Source: a virus
Lineage: Duplodnaviria; Heunggongvirae; Uroviricota; Caudoviricetes
IMG/VR virus record: IMGVR_UViG_2778261447_000005
Location: 1 to 18,499 of that record
Length of the DNA stretch: 18,499 bases
Direction: 5' to 3' (one strand)
Positions 6,305 through 17,174 of this stretch are shown one piece after another (the first letter of the stretch is position 1; every line of letters begins with the position of its first letter). The notes under the pieces were generated by a model. The model saw only the letters and a program-made list of their open reading frames with translations, searched no databases and was not told where the DNA came from. The translations under genes and the position numbers were made by a program.

Positions 6305-7081
6305 TTAACCACGTTTCGCCTTCGCTTTCGCCTTCGGCGTCGTGGTCTGTTCTCTGGTTGTATCTTTCTGTGCCGCAGGCTCCTGTGCGGCAGCGGCTTC
6401 ATCCTGTCCGGCCTTTTTCAGGGCCCGTGAAAGCGTGGCAATCTCACGTTTTACCCCCGCATTCGGGTTAAGGTGCATTGCCTCACGGAACAGCTTCAGA
6501 CTCACCGCCATGCTGTCGGCATCGGTCAGGCCACGACGGGCAAAGGCGCATGCCTTGCACAGCTTGGCGCGGACCTCATCGGGCATGTCCCGGTTCGCGA
6601 CAATTTGCCAGAGGGTGTCCAGCGGTTCGATGTAGCCGGACAAATCGGCGTGTGCATCCGTTCCGGCCTGTGTCAGAACAGGGTTGCAGATTTCCTCGGT
6701 CAGTACCGTGGCTGCCGTACGCCCGAAGTTGTCAGGCATCGTGAGGTTGTGGCGAACCACATAATCCCCGATGCGCAGTGCAAGCGCCAGGTCGCCACAG
6801 TCCACGGCCCACACCATGAGTGTGGCTATCACCTCATCCTGCTGTCCGCCGTCGGCTTCCAGCGTGCCGTCTATCCAGCCTGCAAAACCCGGCAGCATTT
6901 CACGCTTGAGCGCGGCCTTTGCCGCTTTTGCCTGGACGCCCTTTATGCGTTGCTGTGCCAGGCGCAGACGGTGAAGGACCTGCTCATGAGCCGTGCGGGC
7001 CACGATATCCTCGTTTTCTGCTGCCGTTCCTGCCCGTAAAGCCATCACGCGCTGGAAATGAGCCTGTGCCGGTGTCAGCAT
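6305..7081 (-). CDS. M: Terminase small (endonuclease) subunit gpM-like
   Basis: 258 aa; MPDEVRAKLCKACAF and a Lys/Ala-rich C-terminal tail as in P2 gpM; follows N. Confidence 0.9.
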   Translation of the reverse strand: MLTPAQAHFQRVMALRAGTAAENEDIVARTAHEQVLHRLRLAQQRIKGVQAKAAKAALKREMLPGFAGWIDGTLEADGGQQDEVIATLMVWAVDCGDLALALRIGDYVVRHNLTMPDNFGRTAATVLTEEICNPVLTQAGTDAHADLSGYIEPLDTLWQIVANRDMPDEVRAKLCKACAFARRGLTDADSMAVSLKLFREAMHLNPNAGVKREIATLSRALKKAGQDEAAAAQEPAAQKDTTREQTTTPKAKAKAKRG

Positions 7082-9242: not shown

Positions 9243-10994
9243 ATGATTCAGGATACATTTGTTCGCCAGCGGGCACGCCAGCTGTACTGGCAGGGTTACC
9301 CTGTTGCGGAAATTTCCCGCCTTATGGGTATCAACCAGAACACGATCCATTCGTGGAAAAAACGCGACCAGTGGGATGAGACGCCCCCGGTTCAGCGTGT
9401 CACGCAGTCCATGGATGCGCGACTCATTCAGCTCACGGAAAAACAGAATAAAACAGGCGGGGACTTTAAGGAAATTGATTTGCTGACCCGTCAGCTTAAA
9501 AAGCTGCATGACGGTCTGCCGGATGAGACGGCAACAGGAAAGAAAGGCCGGGCGAAAAAACGCAAAAATCATTTCACGCCGGAACAGATCGCGGCGCTGC
9601 GGGAAAAAATTACCGACAGGCTGGCCGGACACCAGCGCAAATGGCTTGATGCTATCGGTGCCTGTGAGCGTGCCGGAATTACTGACAGGATGATCCTGAA
9701 ATCCCGCCAGATTGGGGCGACCTGGTATTTTGCGCAGGAAGCGCTGCTGATGGCGCTGCGTGACGATGTGGCACAACCTTACCAGCGTAACCAGATTTTT
9801 TTGTCTGCGTCTCGTCGTCAGGCGCTCCAGTTTAAAAGCATTATTCAGAAGGCTGCATCTGAAGTTGATGTGGAACTGAAAGGGGGCGATAAAGTCATCC
9901 TCTCCAACGGTGCAGAGCTGCATTTTCTCGGCACTTCTGCGGCCACCGCGCAAGCGTACACAGGGAATCTGTATTTTGATGAGTTTTTCTGGACGGGGCG
10001 TTTCGCAGAGCTGCGCAAGGTGGCTGCTGCTATGGCAACGCTGGATGGTTTGCGGTGTACCTATTTTTCCACGCCATCAAGTGAAACACATGAGGCGTAT
10101 GCATACTGGAACGGCGATCACTGGAATGAAGGGCTTCGTACTCATAAACGTCAGCATTTTGATGTGAGCTGGAATGCGCTTCATAACGGCCTTATCTGTC
10201 CTGACTATATCTGGCGGCAAATTGTGACGCTGGAAGATGTGGTCAGTCAGGGATGGACGTTAACCAACATTGACAAAATCCGGCGCAATAACACTGAAGA
10301 CGAGTTCCGCAATCTCTACATGTGTGAATTTGCTCGCGAAGGGGAATCGGCATTTAACCTGAATATCCTGATTGGCTGCGGTGTTGACGGATACGACGAG
10401 TGGCCGGACTGGAAGCCGTTTGCACCGCGTCCGATGGGGAACCGCCCTGTGTGGATTGGGTACGACGCCAACGGCAGTAGCGGGAACGGTGACAGCGGGG
10501 CGGTTGTCGTGGTGGTGCCGCCAGCCGTACCGGGCGGGCGTTTTCGCACCGTGGAGACGCGGCGGGTGCAGGGGCTGGAGTTTGAGGCGCAGGCGAAGGT
10601 GATTGAAGAGTTCACCTTTCGCTATAACGTTGAGCATATCGGTATTGACGTAACCGGCGGTCACGGGGATGCGGTGTATCAGATTGTGAAGCGCTTTTTT
10701 CCGGCAGCCATTCCCTACACCTTCACCCTGTCATCAAAGCGCACGCTGGTTCTGAAGATGCTGCAGCTCATGCGCGCCGGGCGGTGGGAGTACGACCGCA
10801 GCGAGCGCGAACTGGTGAGCGCCTTTAACGCGGTACGCAAAACAAAAACGCAGGCCGGATTTATCACCTACGAAACAGATCGCGCAAGAGGCGTAAGCCA
10901 TGGCGATCTTGCATGGGCCACCATGCTGGCCGTTATCAACGAACCTGTCGGCGGTGAACATGATGCCGCCCCCTTCAGTGTTACGGAGTTCTGA
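9243..10994 (+). CDS. P: Terminase large (ATPase) subunit gpP-like
   Basis: 583 aa; N-terminus with QLYWQGYPVAEISRLMGIN...HSWKKRDQWDE matches P2 gpP-type terminases; GAGGGGGAG RBS; divergent from O as in P2. Confidence 0.9.
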   Translation: MIQDTFVRQRARQLYWQGYPVAEISRLMGINQNTIHSWKKRDQWDETPPVQRVTQSMDARLIQLTEKQNKTGGDFKEIDLLTRQLKKLHDGLPDETATGKKGRAKKRKNHFTPEQIAALREKITDRLAGHQRKWLDAIGACERAGITDRMILKSRQIGATWYFAQEALLMALRDDVAQPYQRNQIFLSASRRQALQFKSIIQKAASEVDVELKGGDKVILSNGAELHFLGTSAATAQAYTGNLYFDEFFWTGRFAELRKVAAAMATLDGLRCTYFSTPSSETHEAYAYWNGDHWNEGLRTHKRQHFDVSWNALHNGLICPDYIWRQIVTLEDVVSQGWTLTNIDKIRRNNTEDEFRNLYMCEFAREGESAFNLNILIGCGVDGYDEWPDWKPFAPRPMGNRPVWIGYDANGSSGNGDSGAVVVVVPPAVPGGRFRTVETRRVQGLEFEAQAKVIEEFTFRYNVEHIGIDVTGGHGDAVYQIVKRFFPAAIPYTFTLSSKRTLVLKMLQLMRAGRWEYDRSERELVSAFNAVRKTKTQAGFITYETDRARGVSHGDLAWATMLAVINEPVGGEHDAAPFSVTEF

Positions 10995-12049
10995 TGAGCA
11001 GAAAAAATAAACAACGACGTACGAACGCCCGCGCAGCGCAGGGCAGCCTTGCGGATTCCCTGCGAAGCGACCCGACACTAAGTGCCTTCACGTTTGAAGG
11101 ACCTTACCGGCTGTCAGGGGCCGACCTGCTGGACAGCATGTACTGCGCCGACAACGGGCGGTGGTTTGAAACGCCCGTTGACTGGTACGGACTGGCACGG
11201 GCTGCCCGCCAGACGTCCTGGCACCAGTCGGCGCTCAGCTTCAAACGTAATGTGCTGCTGGGCTGCTATATTCCACATCCTCTGCTGTCCCGCCAGGAGT
11301 TCGCCGGGGTGGCGATGGACTGGTTTGTGTTCGGTAATGCCTGTCTTGAGCTGCGGCGCAACATGCTTGGCGAACCGCTGGCCCTGCGCCGGGCGCTGGC
11401 GAAATACATGCGACGTGGCAGCGATATGAAATCATGGTGGTATATACAGGAAGGACAGGAAGAGTACCGCTTTCGTGAGGGGACGATATGCCACCTGATG
11501 AATCCTGATATCAACCAGGAGATTTACGGGATGCCGGATTACCTGGGCGGCCTGCTGTCTGCCAGCCTGTCACATTCCGCCGATATCTTCCGCAAGCTCT
11601 ACTACGATAACGGCTCACACGCGGGCTGTATTGTCTACATCGGTGCGGCGCAGGTTGACCGTGAAAGCATGGAAAAACTGCGGGAAACACTGCAAAGCGC
11701 GCGTGGTGGCGGGGCGTTTAAAAATCTGCTCATCCACGCGGCGGGAGGTGGTAAGGATGGCGTACAGATTTTGCCGTTTCAGCAAATCACCGCAAAGGAT
11801 GAGTTCATGAACGTCAAGGCTGCATCGCGTGATGATGTGCTGTCCGTGCACCGTGTACCGCCGCAGCTGATGGGGGCCATGCCGGGTGAGAAGGGGTCAT
11901 TCGGGGATGTGGAGAAGGCAGCCCGTGTGTTTGCCATTAACGAACTGATGCCCGTCATGGAAGCAATGAAACACGTCAACGACTGGCTGGGCGAAGAGGT
12001 GATCCGTTTTAACCCTTACGCACTGTTAGACACCCAGCCCATATCCTGA
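10994..12049 (+). CDS. Q: Portal (capsid vertex) protein gpQ-like
   Basis: 351 aa; SAFTFEGP, NGRWFETPV, PDINQEIYGMPDYL, GKDGVQILPFQ and QLMGAMPGEKGSFGDVEKAARVF match P2 gpQ as I recall it; start overlaps P stop. Confidence 0.9.
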   Translation: MSRKNKQRRTNARAAQGSLADSLRSDPTLSAFTFEGPYRLSGADLLDSMYCADNGRWFETPVDWYGLARAARQTSWHQSALSFKRNVLLGCYIPHPLLSRQEFAGVAMDWFVFGNACLELRRNMLGEPLALRRALAKYMRRGSDMKSWWYIQEGQEEYRFREGTICHLMNPDINQEIYGMPDYLGGLLSASLSHSADIFRKLYYDNGSHAGCIVYIGAAQVDRESMEKLRETLQSARGGGAFKNLLIHAAGGGKDGVQILPFQQITAKDEFMNVKAASRDDVLSVHRVPPQLMGAMPGEKGSFGDVEKAARVFAINELMPVMEAMKHVNDWLGEEVIRFNPYALLDTQPIS

Positions 12050-12100: not shown

Positions 12101-12115
12101 ACTCTCCAGCTCTGC

Positions 12116-12619
12116 TTAACGAAGTGCTGATGGCGCTCGCTTTTTCAGGTGATTAGCGATGTGCTTTTTCATGTGCATAACAACATCGCCCCAGGCTTCT
12201 TCGCTGGGTTTATTGATAAATACGCGAACAGAAATATCGTCTTCCACCCGGACTCTCAGAGACACCCGTTCCGCATCTACTGAATATAATTCAAGTGCAA
12301 TAACCACGCTTACCGGGTAGCTGCTGTCAGATGACTTAACCCAGGTTCGCACGGCCATGCGGAAAATATTGTCTGGTGCAGATGCGATATTGTGGACTGA
12401 AAGAGGACTAAAATCCGCCGCTGTCTTACATGGCAAGCCTGTCTCCACGTAGCGGTGCAGGTCGCCATCATCGTCTTCCCAGTACATGGATGGAAGCCCC
12501 AGCCATTCTTCATAGAAATCAATCAGCCTTGCCGCTTCATCCCGCAAAATTTGAGCTGCCTCAGCGCGTTTTTCTTCAGCTTCACGATTGATCTGGCATA
12601 AATCATTAAAGTGGCTCAT
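12116..12619 (-). CDS. Hypothetical protein, unrecognised family (accessory/moron candidate); alternative in-frame start at 12826/12829 would give ~237 aa
   Basis: ATG 12619 is preceded by AAGAGGA at optimal spacing (MSHFNDLCQINREAEEKRAEAAQILRDEAARL..., 167 aa). The same frame stays open 70 codons further upstream (TTG-ATG at 12829/12826) but without an RBS. No resemblance to P2 structural or replication proteins that I can recall. Confidence 0.55.
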   Translation of the reverse strand: MSHFNDLCQINREAEEKRAEAAQILRDEAARLIDFYEEWLGLPSMYWEDDDGDLHRYVETGLPCKTAADFSPLSVHNIASAPDNIFRMAVRTWVKSSDSSYPVSVVIALELYSVDAERVSLRVRVEDDISVRVFINKPSEEAWGDVVMHMKKHIANHLKKRAPSALR

Positions 12620-13045
12620 GACATTATCCTCTTTTGAGTTGATGCCTGCCGCTATTCTGACTTTGCCCGGGTTCTCCTGCAAGCTGGTTATTCCTTCAGA
12701 TAATTTCACAACATCTCCAACCTTGTAGCCATCATCGCCGGGCGGATGCTTACGCAACCCCGCAACTCTGACGACATATTCTCGCTGCCTCAGTGCGATT
12801 TTGACGGCCTTATCTTTCACCCCCATCAAATCAAGCTTTTACGTCTTTTTTACGCTCAGCGTGAGAAATACAGCCATTCTGTTGTGTCGCTGCAACATCG
12901 TTCAGGGAATGCTATTTACCCCCTGAAACGCGGGCTGTTCCCCCGTCACCTGCGCGCAGAAAAAGGCCTTTTTTCGTGCACGCACGGATCCCCGACGGAT
13001 CCAGACGCCACACGGGCCGGAAGGGCAAAAAGTCGTTCAAAAAAA

Positions 13046-13072
13046 TTGTGCAAATTTGTGCACTATTGTGCA
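13046..13072. repeat. Three perfect direct repeats of TTGTGCA at exact 10-bp phasing
   Basis: aTTGTGCAaatTTGTGCActaTTGTGCAttg read directly (13046, 13056, 13066), immediately adjacent to the terminator hairpin, inside a ~280-bp non-coding stretch. Confidence 0.5.
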
Positions 13073-13080
13073 TTGAAATA

Positions 13081-13103
13081 AACGCCCTGGAGGAGGGCGT
13101 TTT
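13081..13103. terminator. Rho-independent terminator, probably bidirectional; ends the minus-strand A-linked operon
   Basis: AACGCCCTggaggAGGGCGTT (8-bp GC-rich stem, 5-nt loop) followed by TT on plus and by TTTATTTCAAT on minus; begins 7 nt after the stop of the 13110..13511 ORF. Confidence 0.65.
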
Positions 13104-13109
13104 GCTCAT

Positions 13110-13511
13110 CTATTTATAGCCTTGCCCCTTACTGGCCAGCGCCCTGATGGCAGGGCGTGCCAACACCATATTTTGGCAATGATGAATTGCCCGGCAAAAT
13201 TCATCTCTACCCATTGGATGCTCAACTGGCAATGTAAAATACAGGTTCCATGCATCGCCTAAAAGTTGGGCTATCTTTTGTTCTTCAGATGTCAGCAAGC
13301 GGTACTCCCCATCCTTGATGTAGTCACTTGTGCCATCGACCTGCTGTTCTGCAATGTGGAAAGCACCTATTGGTTTTGCTTCCAGCGATGCCAAAGCAAT
13401 CCGTGCCAGTTTTTCCGCTTCTTCGGCTGGCAGTACAACGTTGCTACCAGGTCCGTATGTTTCGCGCCACTGCCTGATTGTCAGTAGTCGCTCTTTGGTT
13501 ATAGTGGTCAT
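13110..13511 (-). CDS. Hypothetical protein (133 aa), last gene of A-linked cassette
   Basis: ATG 13511 overlaps the upstream stop (ATGA); GAGGAT RBS; ends just before the terminator. Sequence MTTITKERLLTIRQWRETYGPGSNVVLPAEEAEKLARIALASLEAK... not recognised. Confidence 0.55.
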   Translation of the reverse strand: MTTITKERLLTIRQWRETYGPGSNVVLPAEEAEKLARIALASLEAKPIGAFHIAEQQVDGTSDYIKDGEYRLLTSEEQKIAQLLGDAWNLYFTLPVEHPMGRDEFCRAIHHCQNMVLARPAIRALASKGQGYK

Positions 13512-14239: not shown

Positions 14240-14667
14240 TGTTGTTTCCTCCCGTTCTGTGCTGGTCTGGCGAATGAATTGCGTTGTGGTGAAAAGACCA
14301 TTCGCGCCAGCGCGGCCTTGTGATTGACTGTGTTCAGTGTTCTGGCCAGTCCGCCGTTGTGCCTGCGTGTCCGCTCTTCGTGATATCTCTGCATGATTTT
14401 CCCGGCAGGCGTGCACGGCTCCGGTTCCTCCGGCGAACGGCGCGGACGAATGACGACAGTCCAGCTATGGCTCTCGCTGCCCGGCCGCCTGTTGAGTATG
14501 TCGGCGATGGTGGTCTCCGTGGTGCGATCGGGGCTGACTATCGTGATTTCCAGCTCGTCGCCCGGTTGTGGCCTTGTGGCAGGCCTGAACAGTGTCAGCA
14601 CCGGCATACGCTGGCGCATGATGGCCTCAAACTGTGGGCGCTGCATGGTGCAGCAAAATCGCGTCAT
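14236..14667 (-). CDS. Hypothetical Arg-rich protein (143 aa), translationally coupled to A
   Basis: ATG 14667 overlaps the A stop (ATGA) and is preceded by GGAGG; at the position of P2 orf91 but longer, and I do not recognise the sequence. Confidence 0.5.
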   Translation of the reverse strand: MTRFCCTMQRPQFEAIMRQRMPVLTLFRPATRPQPGDELEITIVSPDRTTETTIADILNRRPGSESHSWTVVIRPRRSPEEPEPCTPAGKIMQRYHEERTRRHNGGLARTLNTVNHKAALARMVFSPQRNSFARPAQNGRKQQ

Positions 14668-17174
14668 GCTCCCGCCTCCACTGGCTGCTCTGTGATGATG
14701 TGACGGGCTGACTCATCCCAGTACGCTGTTCCCCCGTTATCCAGACGCACACGGGCACCGTTACGCACGGAGATGATGGCCGCGTCAGGCAACTGCACAC
14801 CCAGCGCATCAAGTTCGCGGGCGATTTGCGTGTCCGTCGCGGTATCCGCAGGCACGACAATCCCCACCCTTACAGGGGTGTCAGATGCCGGTGTGGTGTC
14901 GTTTTGTCCGGTTTTTGCGCCCGACGGCTGATTTTTAATCTGATTACGCAGTTTTCTCCGATCGCCCCTGCTTAACGTATTCAGCCAGCTTTCCAGGTTC
15001 TCTTCGGGAAGCGTCAGTCGTCCGGGGTCCTGCCTGTTTTCTGGTCCGTGATTGTCTGTTTTTTCATCCCGGGGACAGTTATTGCCACGAGTCCAAGGGG
15101 CGACGGGGTCGCCCTGAAGGTCAAAACCCTCGCCCGTGCGGTTGTCTGGTGTTGTTTCTTTTTTAACCAGTTTCCACTCGTCCGGATGGGTGCATATGGT
15201 GTACCGCTCTCCGAGCGACGGGGCGCAGATTCCGTAGATACGTTGAGGGAATTCACCGTAGTCGTTGGCTTCGTCTGCGGTTTCGTATGCGGTGCGGACC
15301 AGATACTGGTTGCGCGGAATGAGCACACCACCCTGTTTCATGATGTAGGTGGCAAAACATCCCACATCTGCGGCAGCCATAATGGCGTCAATATCGTCAT
15401 GATCGAGGTGCTTCGGTGATGCCGGGTTGCGCTCCATCTGGCTTGCAAGGCGGCGGAGTTCACGCCATACCTGGCGGGGCGGAATGCCGAAAAACTGGAA
15501 CTGACGGATGCGGTGAAGGCTTGCCCAGGCAATGGCGTTCTCCACGGTTTCCGCCATGGTTTTCCCGGATTCCTCATCAACGTAAGGTTTTCCGGTTTTC
15601 GGATCATTGTTGTGGAAAGCGCTGGCGTCCAGGTTCTTACCGATATAGGTTGCGATATAGCTTGCCGGTGTGCCTTTTTCCGGGTCTATCTTCTCGCATT
15701 TAAAGCGCGGTGAAATATCGTCCCCCAGTTCGTGGCGATCTGATTTAATTGCTGCTTCGCGCATAATTTCGATGATGCGCTCTGCGTTCTCCGGGGAAGT
15801 GAATACCAGCATATGCCAGTGTGGCGTGCCGTCATGGTGTGGCTCAGCGGTTCGCACGCCGTACCAGCCCAGCCCCTCTTTTTTTATTTTTTTTCTTACG
15901 GCTGCGAAGAAGTCGTAAACCAGATAATCACTGGCATCTCGTACTGTGGCACCGTTGTATTTCGGGTTCAGGCTGCCGTTCTCGTTCACGCTGTGAAAGC
16001 GGGAAGGGGTGGTTACTGTGATGAAGAATGCGACGTCAGCCCGTAATTCGGCCACCATCTCCATCCCTCTGACGCAGACCATCATTTCATTGCGGCGGTT
16101 GCGTGGATTACCCAGGCCAGCCCAGTACACGTCCTCCAGACTCAGGCGCTCGCCGTCTTCGTTTTCAATATCCCAGCTTTTGAGAAAGTCACGGGTGCGC
16201 TGGCGCTTCTCGCGGAACTCCAGTAGTGACTCATGGCTGATATAGGGGGATTGTTTACGTGACACTCTGCCGGCGGCGCGCAGTAACTCCTCCCGCCAGA
16301 GATCGGCGACGTGGCGTAACTGGTTGTTCCACCAGGTCGCGCAGGTGATGCGCAGTACCGCACCCGGAACCCGTTCAGGGTCCGGCGGTGTGCGTCGGTT
16401 GTGCCTGATTTCGAGTTCCGGCCAGTATGGCGGGACCACGCCCAGAATTAAGGCTGTGCGTGCCACCTTCTGGTAGGCCAGCAGCCAGATAACAGGGCTG
16501 TCATTATCCTTGCCTGTCCGTTCAAGAACTTCATCACATATGCGTTCAAATTCTGCGGCGAATGCCTGGGCTGTCAGTGTGGCGATGCGCTGGATTTCGT
16601 CACGGGTGAGTTGCGGCAGTGTGAGCAGTTCTTCAAGGCGATGGCGCACGACGGTGGTTTTGAATGCCGGCGTTGCAAAGCGGTCGTTAACCCTTTCAAT
16701 ACGTTTCAGGCGCGCACGCAGTCCACGGCGAACGAAATTATCGGCCACGTATGCGCTGTTGTTTTTTACACCTTCACTGCGGGCACTTTGCTGTTTCCGG
16801 TTCAGTCGTGCCAGATCACGGATCAACACACTGGCAAGAAACGAGGGCAGGGTGCGAAGTTCGGCTATCGCCTCCGATACCGCCGTTGGCGGATTTTCGC
16901 GTCTGTGTCGTGCCAGCTTATCCAGCCTTATCTGCCGCTCTTCGTCCCGGTGAAGGTGTGAATTAATTTGCTTACCTTTGTCCGTGGTTGTCAGGAAGGC
17001 CACGGTTTCTTCATCCAGCCGGGCCTCAGTGCGAATGTCTTCGGTGAGGTAGTCACGGATTGCCCGTTGTAATGCGGTTGGCTTCTGCGGTAATGCTCTG
17101 CCGAATGTCTCAGGATCAATAACCGGCAGCGGGGCGTTCCACGGGTACGCCAGGTGCGTGTGGTGATGGCTCAT
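14664..17174 (-). CDS. A: Replication initiation protein gpA-like (HUH rolling-circle endonuclease)
   Basis: 836 aa; YPWNAP near the N-terminus, HUH motif in EPHHDGTPHWHMLVF, catalytic-Tyr motif SYIATYIGKN; all match P2 gpA as I recall it. GGGGAG RBS. Confidence 0.9.
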   Translation of the reverse strand: MSHHHTHLAYPWNAPLPVIDPETFGRALPQKPTALQRAIRDYLTEDIRTEARLDEETVAFLTTTDKGKQINSHLHRDEERQIRLDKLARHRRENPPTAVSEAIAELRTLPSFLASVLIRDLARLNRKQQSARSEGVKNNSAYVADNFVRRGLRARLKRIERVNDRFATPAFKTTVVRHRLEELLTLPQLTRDEIQRIATLTAQAFAAEFERICDEVLERTGKDNDSPVIWLLAYQKVARTALILGVVPPYWPELEIRHNRRTPPDPERVPGAVLRITCATWWNNQLRHVADLWREELLRAAGRVSRKQSPYISHESLLEFREKRQRTRDFLKSWDIENEDGERLSLEDVYWAGLGNPRNRRNEMMVCVRGMEMVAELRADVAFFITVTTPSRFHSVNENGSLNPKYNGATVRDASDYLVYDFFAAVRKKIKKEGLGWYGVRTAEPHHDGTPHWHMLVFTSPENAERIIEIMREAAIKSDRHELGDDISPRFKCEKIDPEKGTPASYIATYIGKNLDASAFHNNDPKTGKPYVDEESGKTMAETVENAIAWASLHRIRQFQFFGIPPRQVWRELRRLASQMERNPASPKHLDHDDIDAIMAAADVGCFATYIMKQGGVLIPRNQYLVRTAYETADEANDYGEFPQRIYGICAPSLGERYTICTHPDEWKLVKKETTPDNRTGEGFDLQGDPVAPWTRGNNCPRDEKTDNHGPENRQDPGRLTLPEENLESWLNTLSRGDRRKLRNQIKNQPSGAKTGQNDTTPASDTPVRVGIVVPADTATDTQIARELDALGVQLPDAAIISVRNGARVRLDNGGTAYWDESARHIITEQPVEAGA

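Follow-up and report, generated by a model that had tools for sequence, protein, structure and literature searches.

A probable cos site of the P88 type in the non-coding island between the portal gene and the accessory genes of a P2-family prophage of E. coli

The 18.5-kb stretch of DNA analysed here as a whole (hereafter the window) is a P88-type (Xuanwuvirus, Peduoviridae), P2-family prophage of E. coli, and prophages identical to it are carried by many E. coli chromosomes. Its gene order is the P2 layout. The small terminase gene (gpM, 6305-7081, with a PF05944 match) lies on the minus strand, as do the capsid genes; the large terminase gene (gpP, 9243-10994) and the portal gene Q (10994-12049) lie on the plus strand; and the gpA-type replication endonuclease gene (14664-17174) is reached via small minus-strand ORFs beyond an island of 280 bp (12830-13109). 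This island, flanked by Q and by the gpA-side accessory genes, sits where a cos site is expected in a phage encoding a gpM/gpP-type terminase, i.e. after the portal gene's 3' end and before the right-end genes. P2 has its cohesive-end site in the equivalent interval, between Q and the old/tin accessory genes. The conserved block within this interval, described below, was found in 1140 of 5426 complete E. coli genomes (about 21%), and is annotated in none of them.

The interval next to cos is a documented hotspot of variable genes, often antiviral ones (PMC9122126), and a second insertion spot is known between cos and Q (PMC5694545). Compared with typical P88-like prophages, the window has a 583-bp insertion directly after the portal gene (12113-12695), which corresponds to this cos-Q spot. 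It holds a minus-strand gene (12116-12619, 167 aa) with a good ribosome binding site and a full-length match to phrog_5091 (function unknown); the RefSeq version of the gene is 236 aa long, being fused in frame with a small conserved upstream ORF (43 aa in P88). On the other side of the island, the minus-strand ORF 13110-13511 (133 aa) is a truncated pseudogene according to RefSeq, which annotates only 13377-13511. The C-terminus of this ORF matches phrog_13916 ('DNA ligase') and its N-terminus phrog_60, 3323 and 660; as the two halves match different PHROG families, the ORF may be what recombination has left at the hotspot's edge. Neither Pfam nor PADLOC gave a match for the small flanking ORFs.

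The initial annotation had found no credible ORF in the island, and this agrees with several observations: in an identical E. coli chromosome RefSeq leaves 12827-13376 blank; most relatives differ by a 1-nt indel inside a dyad of the island, so that any ORF across the dyad would be frameshifted; and satellites carry the same DNA in a different gene context. The GenBank record of P88 itself (KP063541.1; locus L001, 4141-4284) has a 47-aa 'hypothetical protein' drawn over the core, corresponding to about 12830-12975 of the window, but judging from how the region is conserved and from the indels that shift the frame in relatives, this gene is almost certainly spurious.

Three exact copies of TTGTGCA had been reported at helical-repeat spacing, and they are indeed present at 13046-13052, 13056-13062 and 13066-13072, exactly 10 bp apart from start to start. 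They are the only copies in the window on either strand. Their number is ordinary (3 found, 4.7 expected), and it is only the clustering and phasing that are unusual: the full phased pattern arose in 0 of 200 shuffled sequences, even with up to 3 mismatches allowed. The paired GGATCC sites (12986-12991 and 12997-13002) were likewise confirmed, and they sit in a direct repeat, ACGGATCC, at 12984-12991 and 12995-13002 (11-bp spacing), within a spacer region that extends to the phased repeats. The perfect palindrome that had been placed at about 12960-12975 is slightly shorter: the 14-mer AAAAAGGCCTTTTT (A5GGCCT5) at 12960-12973 is perfect, and one extra T follows at 12974. This dyad is flanked, on the minus strand, by a TGCAC followed by an A-tract (TGCACGAAAAAA, 12975-12981).

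The fifth feature, a hairpin terminator with a GC-rich 9-bp stem (AAACGCCCT/AGGGCGTTT, 13080-13102), folds on both strands, with energies of -15.2 kcal/mol (minus) and -16.3 kcal/mol (plus) and z scores of about -3.6 and -3.1, respectively. Its U-tracts are short both ways (UUUAUUU and UUUUG), and a simple scan did not list it. Located 8 nt past the stop codon (at 13110) of ORF 13110-13511, as expected of an intrinsic terminator, it closes the minus-strand accessory genes. In phage 186 the corresponding position, some 160-190 bp before cos, is taken by the annotated terminator t95b.

A search with the portal protein retrieved 80 related IMG/VR loci, most of which encode a portal 82% identical to that of the window. 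Despite this protein divergence, these relatives (75-115 unique sequences) share 90-95% DNA identity with the window over about 12790-13072. Conservation peaks in an invariant core of 54 bp (12912-12965), in which, over 75 unique P88-like sequences, conservation reaches 95% or more at nearly all columns and which the satellites also keep; this is the window's counterpart of the '55-bp core' of the P2 and P4 cos sites, a concept due to Ziermann and Calendar (1990) as cited in PMC5694545 and PMC9594776. At the other end, conservation is lost within a few bases past the third TTGTGCA, and homology stops at 13072 in most P88-like relatives. From the hairpin rightwards, most of them have other sequence; the terminator is thus the end of a swappable module and lies outside cos. 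Within the dyad, the A-run and T-run arms are conserved and the centre is variable, reading CGCG(T/C) in 98 of 115 unique relatives and CGGTGAG in the satellites; the GGCC centre is unique to this prophage among the 115. The sequence GGATCCGTCA(A/G)GGATCC is kept in nearly all of the 115 unique P88-like sequences, but in the satellites the GGATCC pair and the palindrome centre are replaced by unrelated DNA of equal length. The GGATCC repeat is therefore lineage-specific and probably dispensable for packaging. It follows that the five features, which had been grouped into one unit, do not belong together, since the terminator lies beyond the conserved block, the exact palindrome is specific to one prophage and the GGATCC pair is missing from satellites.

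The elements that we call satellites were found by scanning IMG/VR for an invariant 29-mer and screening the matches for a nearby portal gene. Two loci with ample flanks, L169 and L184, were portal-negative; a third portal-negative locus, L181, is an ordinary P88-like relative in which the last part of the portal gene is still present. With the window, L169 and L184 have only 12908/12914-13072 in common (82% identity), and they encode a MazF toxin, a P2-family major capsid protein, a coiled-coil protein, a toprim primase and integrases. A further element, L219 (E. coli KD602, RefSeq), also encodes an Ogr/Delta-like zinc finger and an Icd-like protein. These three loci, which are P4-like satellites, have neither a portal nor a terminase gene and share with the window nothing but 12908-13072. 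Over this segment they keep the core, the proximal GTGCAC with its A-tract and all three TTGTGCA, at unchanged distances. As it is the only segment shared by the satellites, and homology ends at 13072, we take 12908-13072 as the inferred functional cos region; read on the minus strand, it would consist of a left arm of about 24 bp, cosN and a right arm of about 122 bp. The block shared by helper and satellite is thus about 165 bp for the P88 type, versus 55 bp for P2/P4.

The satellite is an integrated element of about 12.5 kb (L184, 1-12700; L169; L219, 5500-18100 of NZ_CM145715.1) with the P88-type cos, MazEF, a 236-aa coiled-coil protein, an Ogr/Delta-like zinc finger, two integrases, an Icd-like protein and a toprim (P4 alpha-like) primase. 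Its P2-family major capsid protein (423-449 aa) has an N-terminal extension. No protein of the element carries a Sid or Psu annotation or a Pfam match to either, and the whole looks like a P4-like satellite with a capsid gene of its own.

In the middle of the invariant core lies a G-rich stretch, GGTGACGGGGGAACAGCCC (minus strand, 12950 to 12932), which we propose as the putative cosN with a 19-nt cohesive end, the nick being placed to within about 2 nt. The cohesive ends of the family are G-rich and about 19 nt long, with a consensus beginning GGYGWGGCGGGG, and the candidate shares 13 of 19 positions with the P2 cosN GGCGAGGCGGGGAAAGCAC, which is at chance level when taken alone, five sites in the window matching equally well; no site in the window matches the P2 19-mer with 3 mismatches or fewer. 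Local alignment of the P2 cos junction with the island likewise gave chance-level scores in both orientations: the likeness of the two is architectural and not alignable. The nick assignment therefore does not rest on the 13/19 match, and its support comes from the context and from a bridging locus, L321, which combines a canonical cosN with TGCACAA-type repeats and a TGCAC-A5 dyad, with A5-N7-T5 at the position of the window's dyad. The bases before the proposed nick, GCGCGCA/GG (the slash marking the nick), resemble the GCGGGCA/GG of relatives; the canonical left-arm YGCGCGC that follows P2-type cosN is absent in the window. Two other placements, a cosN upstream of the GCGCGC motif and a cosN on the plus strand, were rejected, as each breaks synteny with Q and destroys the TGCA register, and L321 favours the minus-strand placement.

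The register is best seen by stacking the right arms of P2, P4, 186, PSP3, Wphi, RSA1 and phiCTX, whose records start at a determined or annotated cohesive end, on the nick. In P2, P4, 186, PSP3 and RSA1, TGCA occurs at -29 (often also at -35), -101, -111 and about -120 to -129, and in Wphi at -29, -100 and -110, the distal third copy being absent; the spacers between the motifs are unrelated among P2, P4 and RSA1. With the nick at the 5' end of GGTGACGGGGGAACAGCCC, the window has TGCA at -30 (the proximal motif), -102, -112 and -122 (the three TTGTGCA, which read TGCACAA on the minus strand), and the usual positions among 115 unique P88-type sequences are -31, -103, -113 and -123. The window thus reproduces the register derived in this analysis from the family (TGCAY at -29, -101, -111 and about -121), the offset of 1-2 nt from P2 implying that the nick could be shifted. 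Matching motifs in the same register were the outcome of the comparison with cos regions of related P2-like phages that the initial annotation had suggested. The proximal TGCACGAAAAAA matches TGCATTAAAACC, found at -29 in P2, P4, 186, PSP3 and RSA1, and the motif at -29 in Wphi is TGCATCAAAACC. The unit of the distal array is TGCAT in P2, P4, 186, PSP3 and RSA1, in a register matching the window's, and TGCACAA in the P88 type, where it is kept in about 95% of the 115 unique cos sequences and in all satellites. The triple repeat is the version, in the P88 type, of a distal array that sits on the right arm at a constant distance from the nick, and it may be a cosB-like array.

We extended this comparison by searching genome contigs with a degenerate cos pattern, which gave 120 matches. 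As the pattern was too loose, the 108 portal-less matches, many of them in GC-rich genomes such as Streptomyces, were taken as a background control; in these TGCA is flat at about 0.004 per position, except in a subset resembling further satellites. Among the 12 portal-linked sites, from other genera including Lelliottia, Pectobacterium, Enterobacter, Yokenella, Erwinia and Xanthomonas, 9 have TGCA at -29, and most of the enteric ones have it also at -101, -111 and about -12x. The TGCAY array is not universal: Variovorax prophages are without it, and phiCTX has GCAG-type repeats instead.

One further locus (L272, Aeromonas veronii CECT 4257) has four GGATC-containing repeats (aaaGGATCtgaaagattctgaaGGATCacaaaaaGGATCc) between -128 and -90 in place of the TGCAY array, and appears to be a case of conserved architecture with a replaced motif. 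GGATCC also occurs twice in the spacer of the window.

The known sites most like the island are the cos sites of P2, P4 and 186 (Ziermann and Calendar 1990), with 19-nt 5' cohesive ends and a '55-bp core'. The window resembles them in its G-rich cosN candidate of about 19 nt starting with GG(C/T)GA, in its pre-nick GCGNGCA/GG, in a TGCAY with A-tract at about -29, in three TGCAY at about -101, -111 and -121, and in being shared with satellites. It differs from P2 in a cosN that is only 13/19 identical, in lacking the left-arm YGCGCGC, in having TGCACAA rather than TGCAT, and in that its ends are predicted. The P2-family phage phiCTX (NC_003278) also has annotated cos-flanking repeats ('region 3 containing R4, R5, R6 repeats') and partly follows the window, with TGCA at -28 and -109, but it has GCAG-type repeats, a 21-nt cohesive end and a Pseudomonas host. 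The cos of lambda is organised as cosQ-cosN-cosB and contains an IHF site as well as R sites to which gpNu1 binds. By analogy, the window may be compared to it in outline, as a nick site with a one-sided array of putative small-terminase sites at fixed spacing; there is, however, no sequence relationship, and the window's unit is of 7 bp, in 10-bp phase and about 100 bp from the nick. The P2-family terminase packages from monomeric circles, unlike that of lambda.

Taken together, these data make it likely, with a probability that we would put at about 0.8, that the island is where this P88-type prophage of the P2 family has its cos site (the cohesive-end site used in DNA packaging). The best reading of the sequence is a cosN together with a cosB-like terminase-recognition array, protein binding, the exact nick and the overhang length being inferred. 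Among the functions that had been proposed for the island, terminase recognition at cos is favoured by synteny, conservation, satellite sharing and the motif register, and those of a regulator-binding site, a partition site, a small RNA or a control region of the accessory genes were not supported. Published cosmid work fits this reading: a longer P4 cos flank increases the transduction of P2 cosmids more than 10^4-fold (PMC9594776), which means that sequence outside the 55-bp core matters. The element is of a known kind and not a new regulator, one of the P2-family cos sites that carries no annotation and has diverged in its cosN and repeat unit. Literature searches on P88/Xuanwuvirus cos, P2-like cosB and TGCAT repeats returned nothing relevant; we found no published experiment on P88-type ends and no public record that begins at this site, and the supplement of PMC9594776 holds no cos sequences.

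The type of cosN and the type of repeat change together in two helper-satellite pairs, P2 and P4 having TGCAT and the P88-like phages and their satellites TGCACAA, as is expected if one protein complex reads both. This bears on an alternative which we consider unlikely, namely that the cos DNA is bent by an architectural protein of the host (IHF, HU or a Fis-like protein) and that the repeats are its binding sites rather than those of terminase. Fixed spacing does suggest DNA bending, IHF acts between cosN and cosB in lambda, an IHF site is annotated in the phiCTX record some 310-340 bp short of its right end, and the window has a perfect IHF consensus at 12829-12841. Yet the motif (TGCAT, TGCACAA, GGATC or GCAG) follows the phage lineage and not the host, it covaries with the cosN type in helper-satellite pairs, and the IHF-like site at 12829 is missing from the satellites; TGCAY is not known as a consensus of either IHF or Fis. 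It is most likely the terminase that reads both the array and cosN, with a host bending protein as a possible cofactor at cos. The IHF-like site itself, AATCAAGCTTTTA, is the only perfect match in the window to the consensus WATCAANNNNTTR; from the putative nick it is about 90-100 bp away, towards the portal gene, in DNA that is conserved in P88-like phages.

That the phased repeats are instead the operator array of a regulator controlling the adjacent accessory (possibly defence) genes is, in our judgement, more doubtful still. Phased short repeats are typical of operators, and in one relative, P2, the annotated old-tin starts follow closely after the TGCAT repeats, which points to a promoter-linked role there. 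In the window, however, a promoter scan of 12830-13109 gave no sigma-70-like site on either strand (by eye, the Ogr/Delta late-promoter dyad TGT-N12-ACA is also absent), and the adjacent minus-strand genes run towards the repeats and terminate before them. Moreover, the repeats stay fixed while the neighbouring genes are swapped in relatives and satellites, and the distance conserved across genera is that to cosN, not that to any gene. Phased direct repeats beside a strong hairpin may also resemble iterons (for replication or partition) or a small RNA at its 3' end, but this is the least probable alternative, since Rfam gave no match in the island (permissive E-values yielding only a meaningless lncRNA, E = 0.85), the hairpin is variable and outside the conserved block, the repeats co-occur with unrelated replication proteins (a gpA-type endonuclease in the prophage, a toprim primase in the satellites), and the replication origin of P2 lies inside gene A.

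As to P2 itself, its distal TGCAT (33452-33478; locus L004, 1452-1482) falls at the expected -35 of the old-tin promoter, whose annotated transcript starts are at 33424 and 33426 on the minus strand. From these annotated starts and the motif positions, the TGCAT probably overlaps the -35 of the old promoter, so that the cos right arm and this promoter may share sequence in P2, and the motifs may have more than one function in some phages.

If the island is a cos site, its order on the minus strand would be as follows: the terminator of the accessory genes, three TGCACAA in 10-bp phase, a spacer of about 65 bp that would be fixed in length and free in sequence, the proximal TGCAC with its A-tract, the A5-N4-T5 dyad, a cosN of about 19 nt (GGTGACGGGGGAACAGCCC), a left arm of about 24 bp and the portal gene. 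The right-arm elements recognised by terminase would be the proximal TGCAC/A-tract and the phased TGCAC repeats. By analogy with lambda, it is the small subunit gpM, rather than gpP or a host protein, that would bind the repeats, which would act like cosB in placing the nuclease on cosN. The fixed spacing might let the complex bend or wrap the DNA, setting the nuclease on cosN, where a staggered cut would produce the cohesive ends. The satellites, by copying exactly the 165-bp module, would have themselves packaged by the terminase of the helper.

One might speculate further that the phased TGCAY triplet (at about -100 to -125) and the TGCAY/A-tract (at about -29) are a family-wide terminase-loading (cosB-like) module of the Peduoviridae and their satellites, perhaps not yet formalised, a generalisation that we put forward tentatively and with rather less than even confidence. 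If true, the module would keep its distance from the nick in phages of Escherichia, Salmonella, Erwinia, Pectobacterium and Ralstonia, and changes of motif (from TGCAT to TGCACAA, to GGATC in Aeromonas or to GCAG in phiCTX) would set the helper-satellite packaging pairs. Were the TGCAY array a terminase-loading site, this would explain the poor packaging by the '55-bp core' alone.

For annotation, the finding points to an unannotated type of cos, over which some records, e.g. that of P88, put 'hypothetical proteins'. Two by-products are of modest interest, the cross-genus TGCAY register and the capsid-encoding P4-like satellites with a P88-type cos. The hotspot of variable genes next to cos is bounded by the limits 12908-13072, and the segment between them is a candidate minimal packaging cassette for P88-based transducing particles. 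For the biology of these phages, the type of array offers a sequence rule for matching satellites to their helpers.
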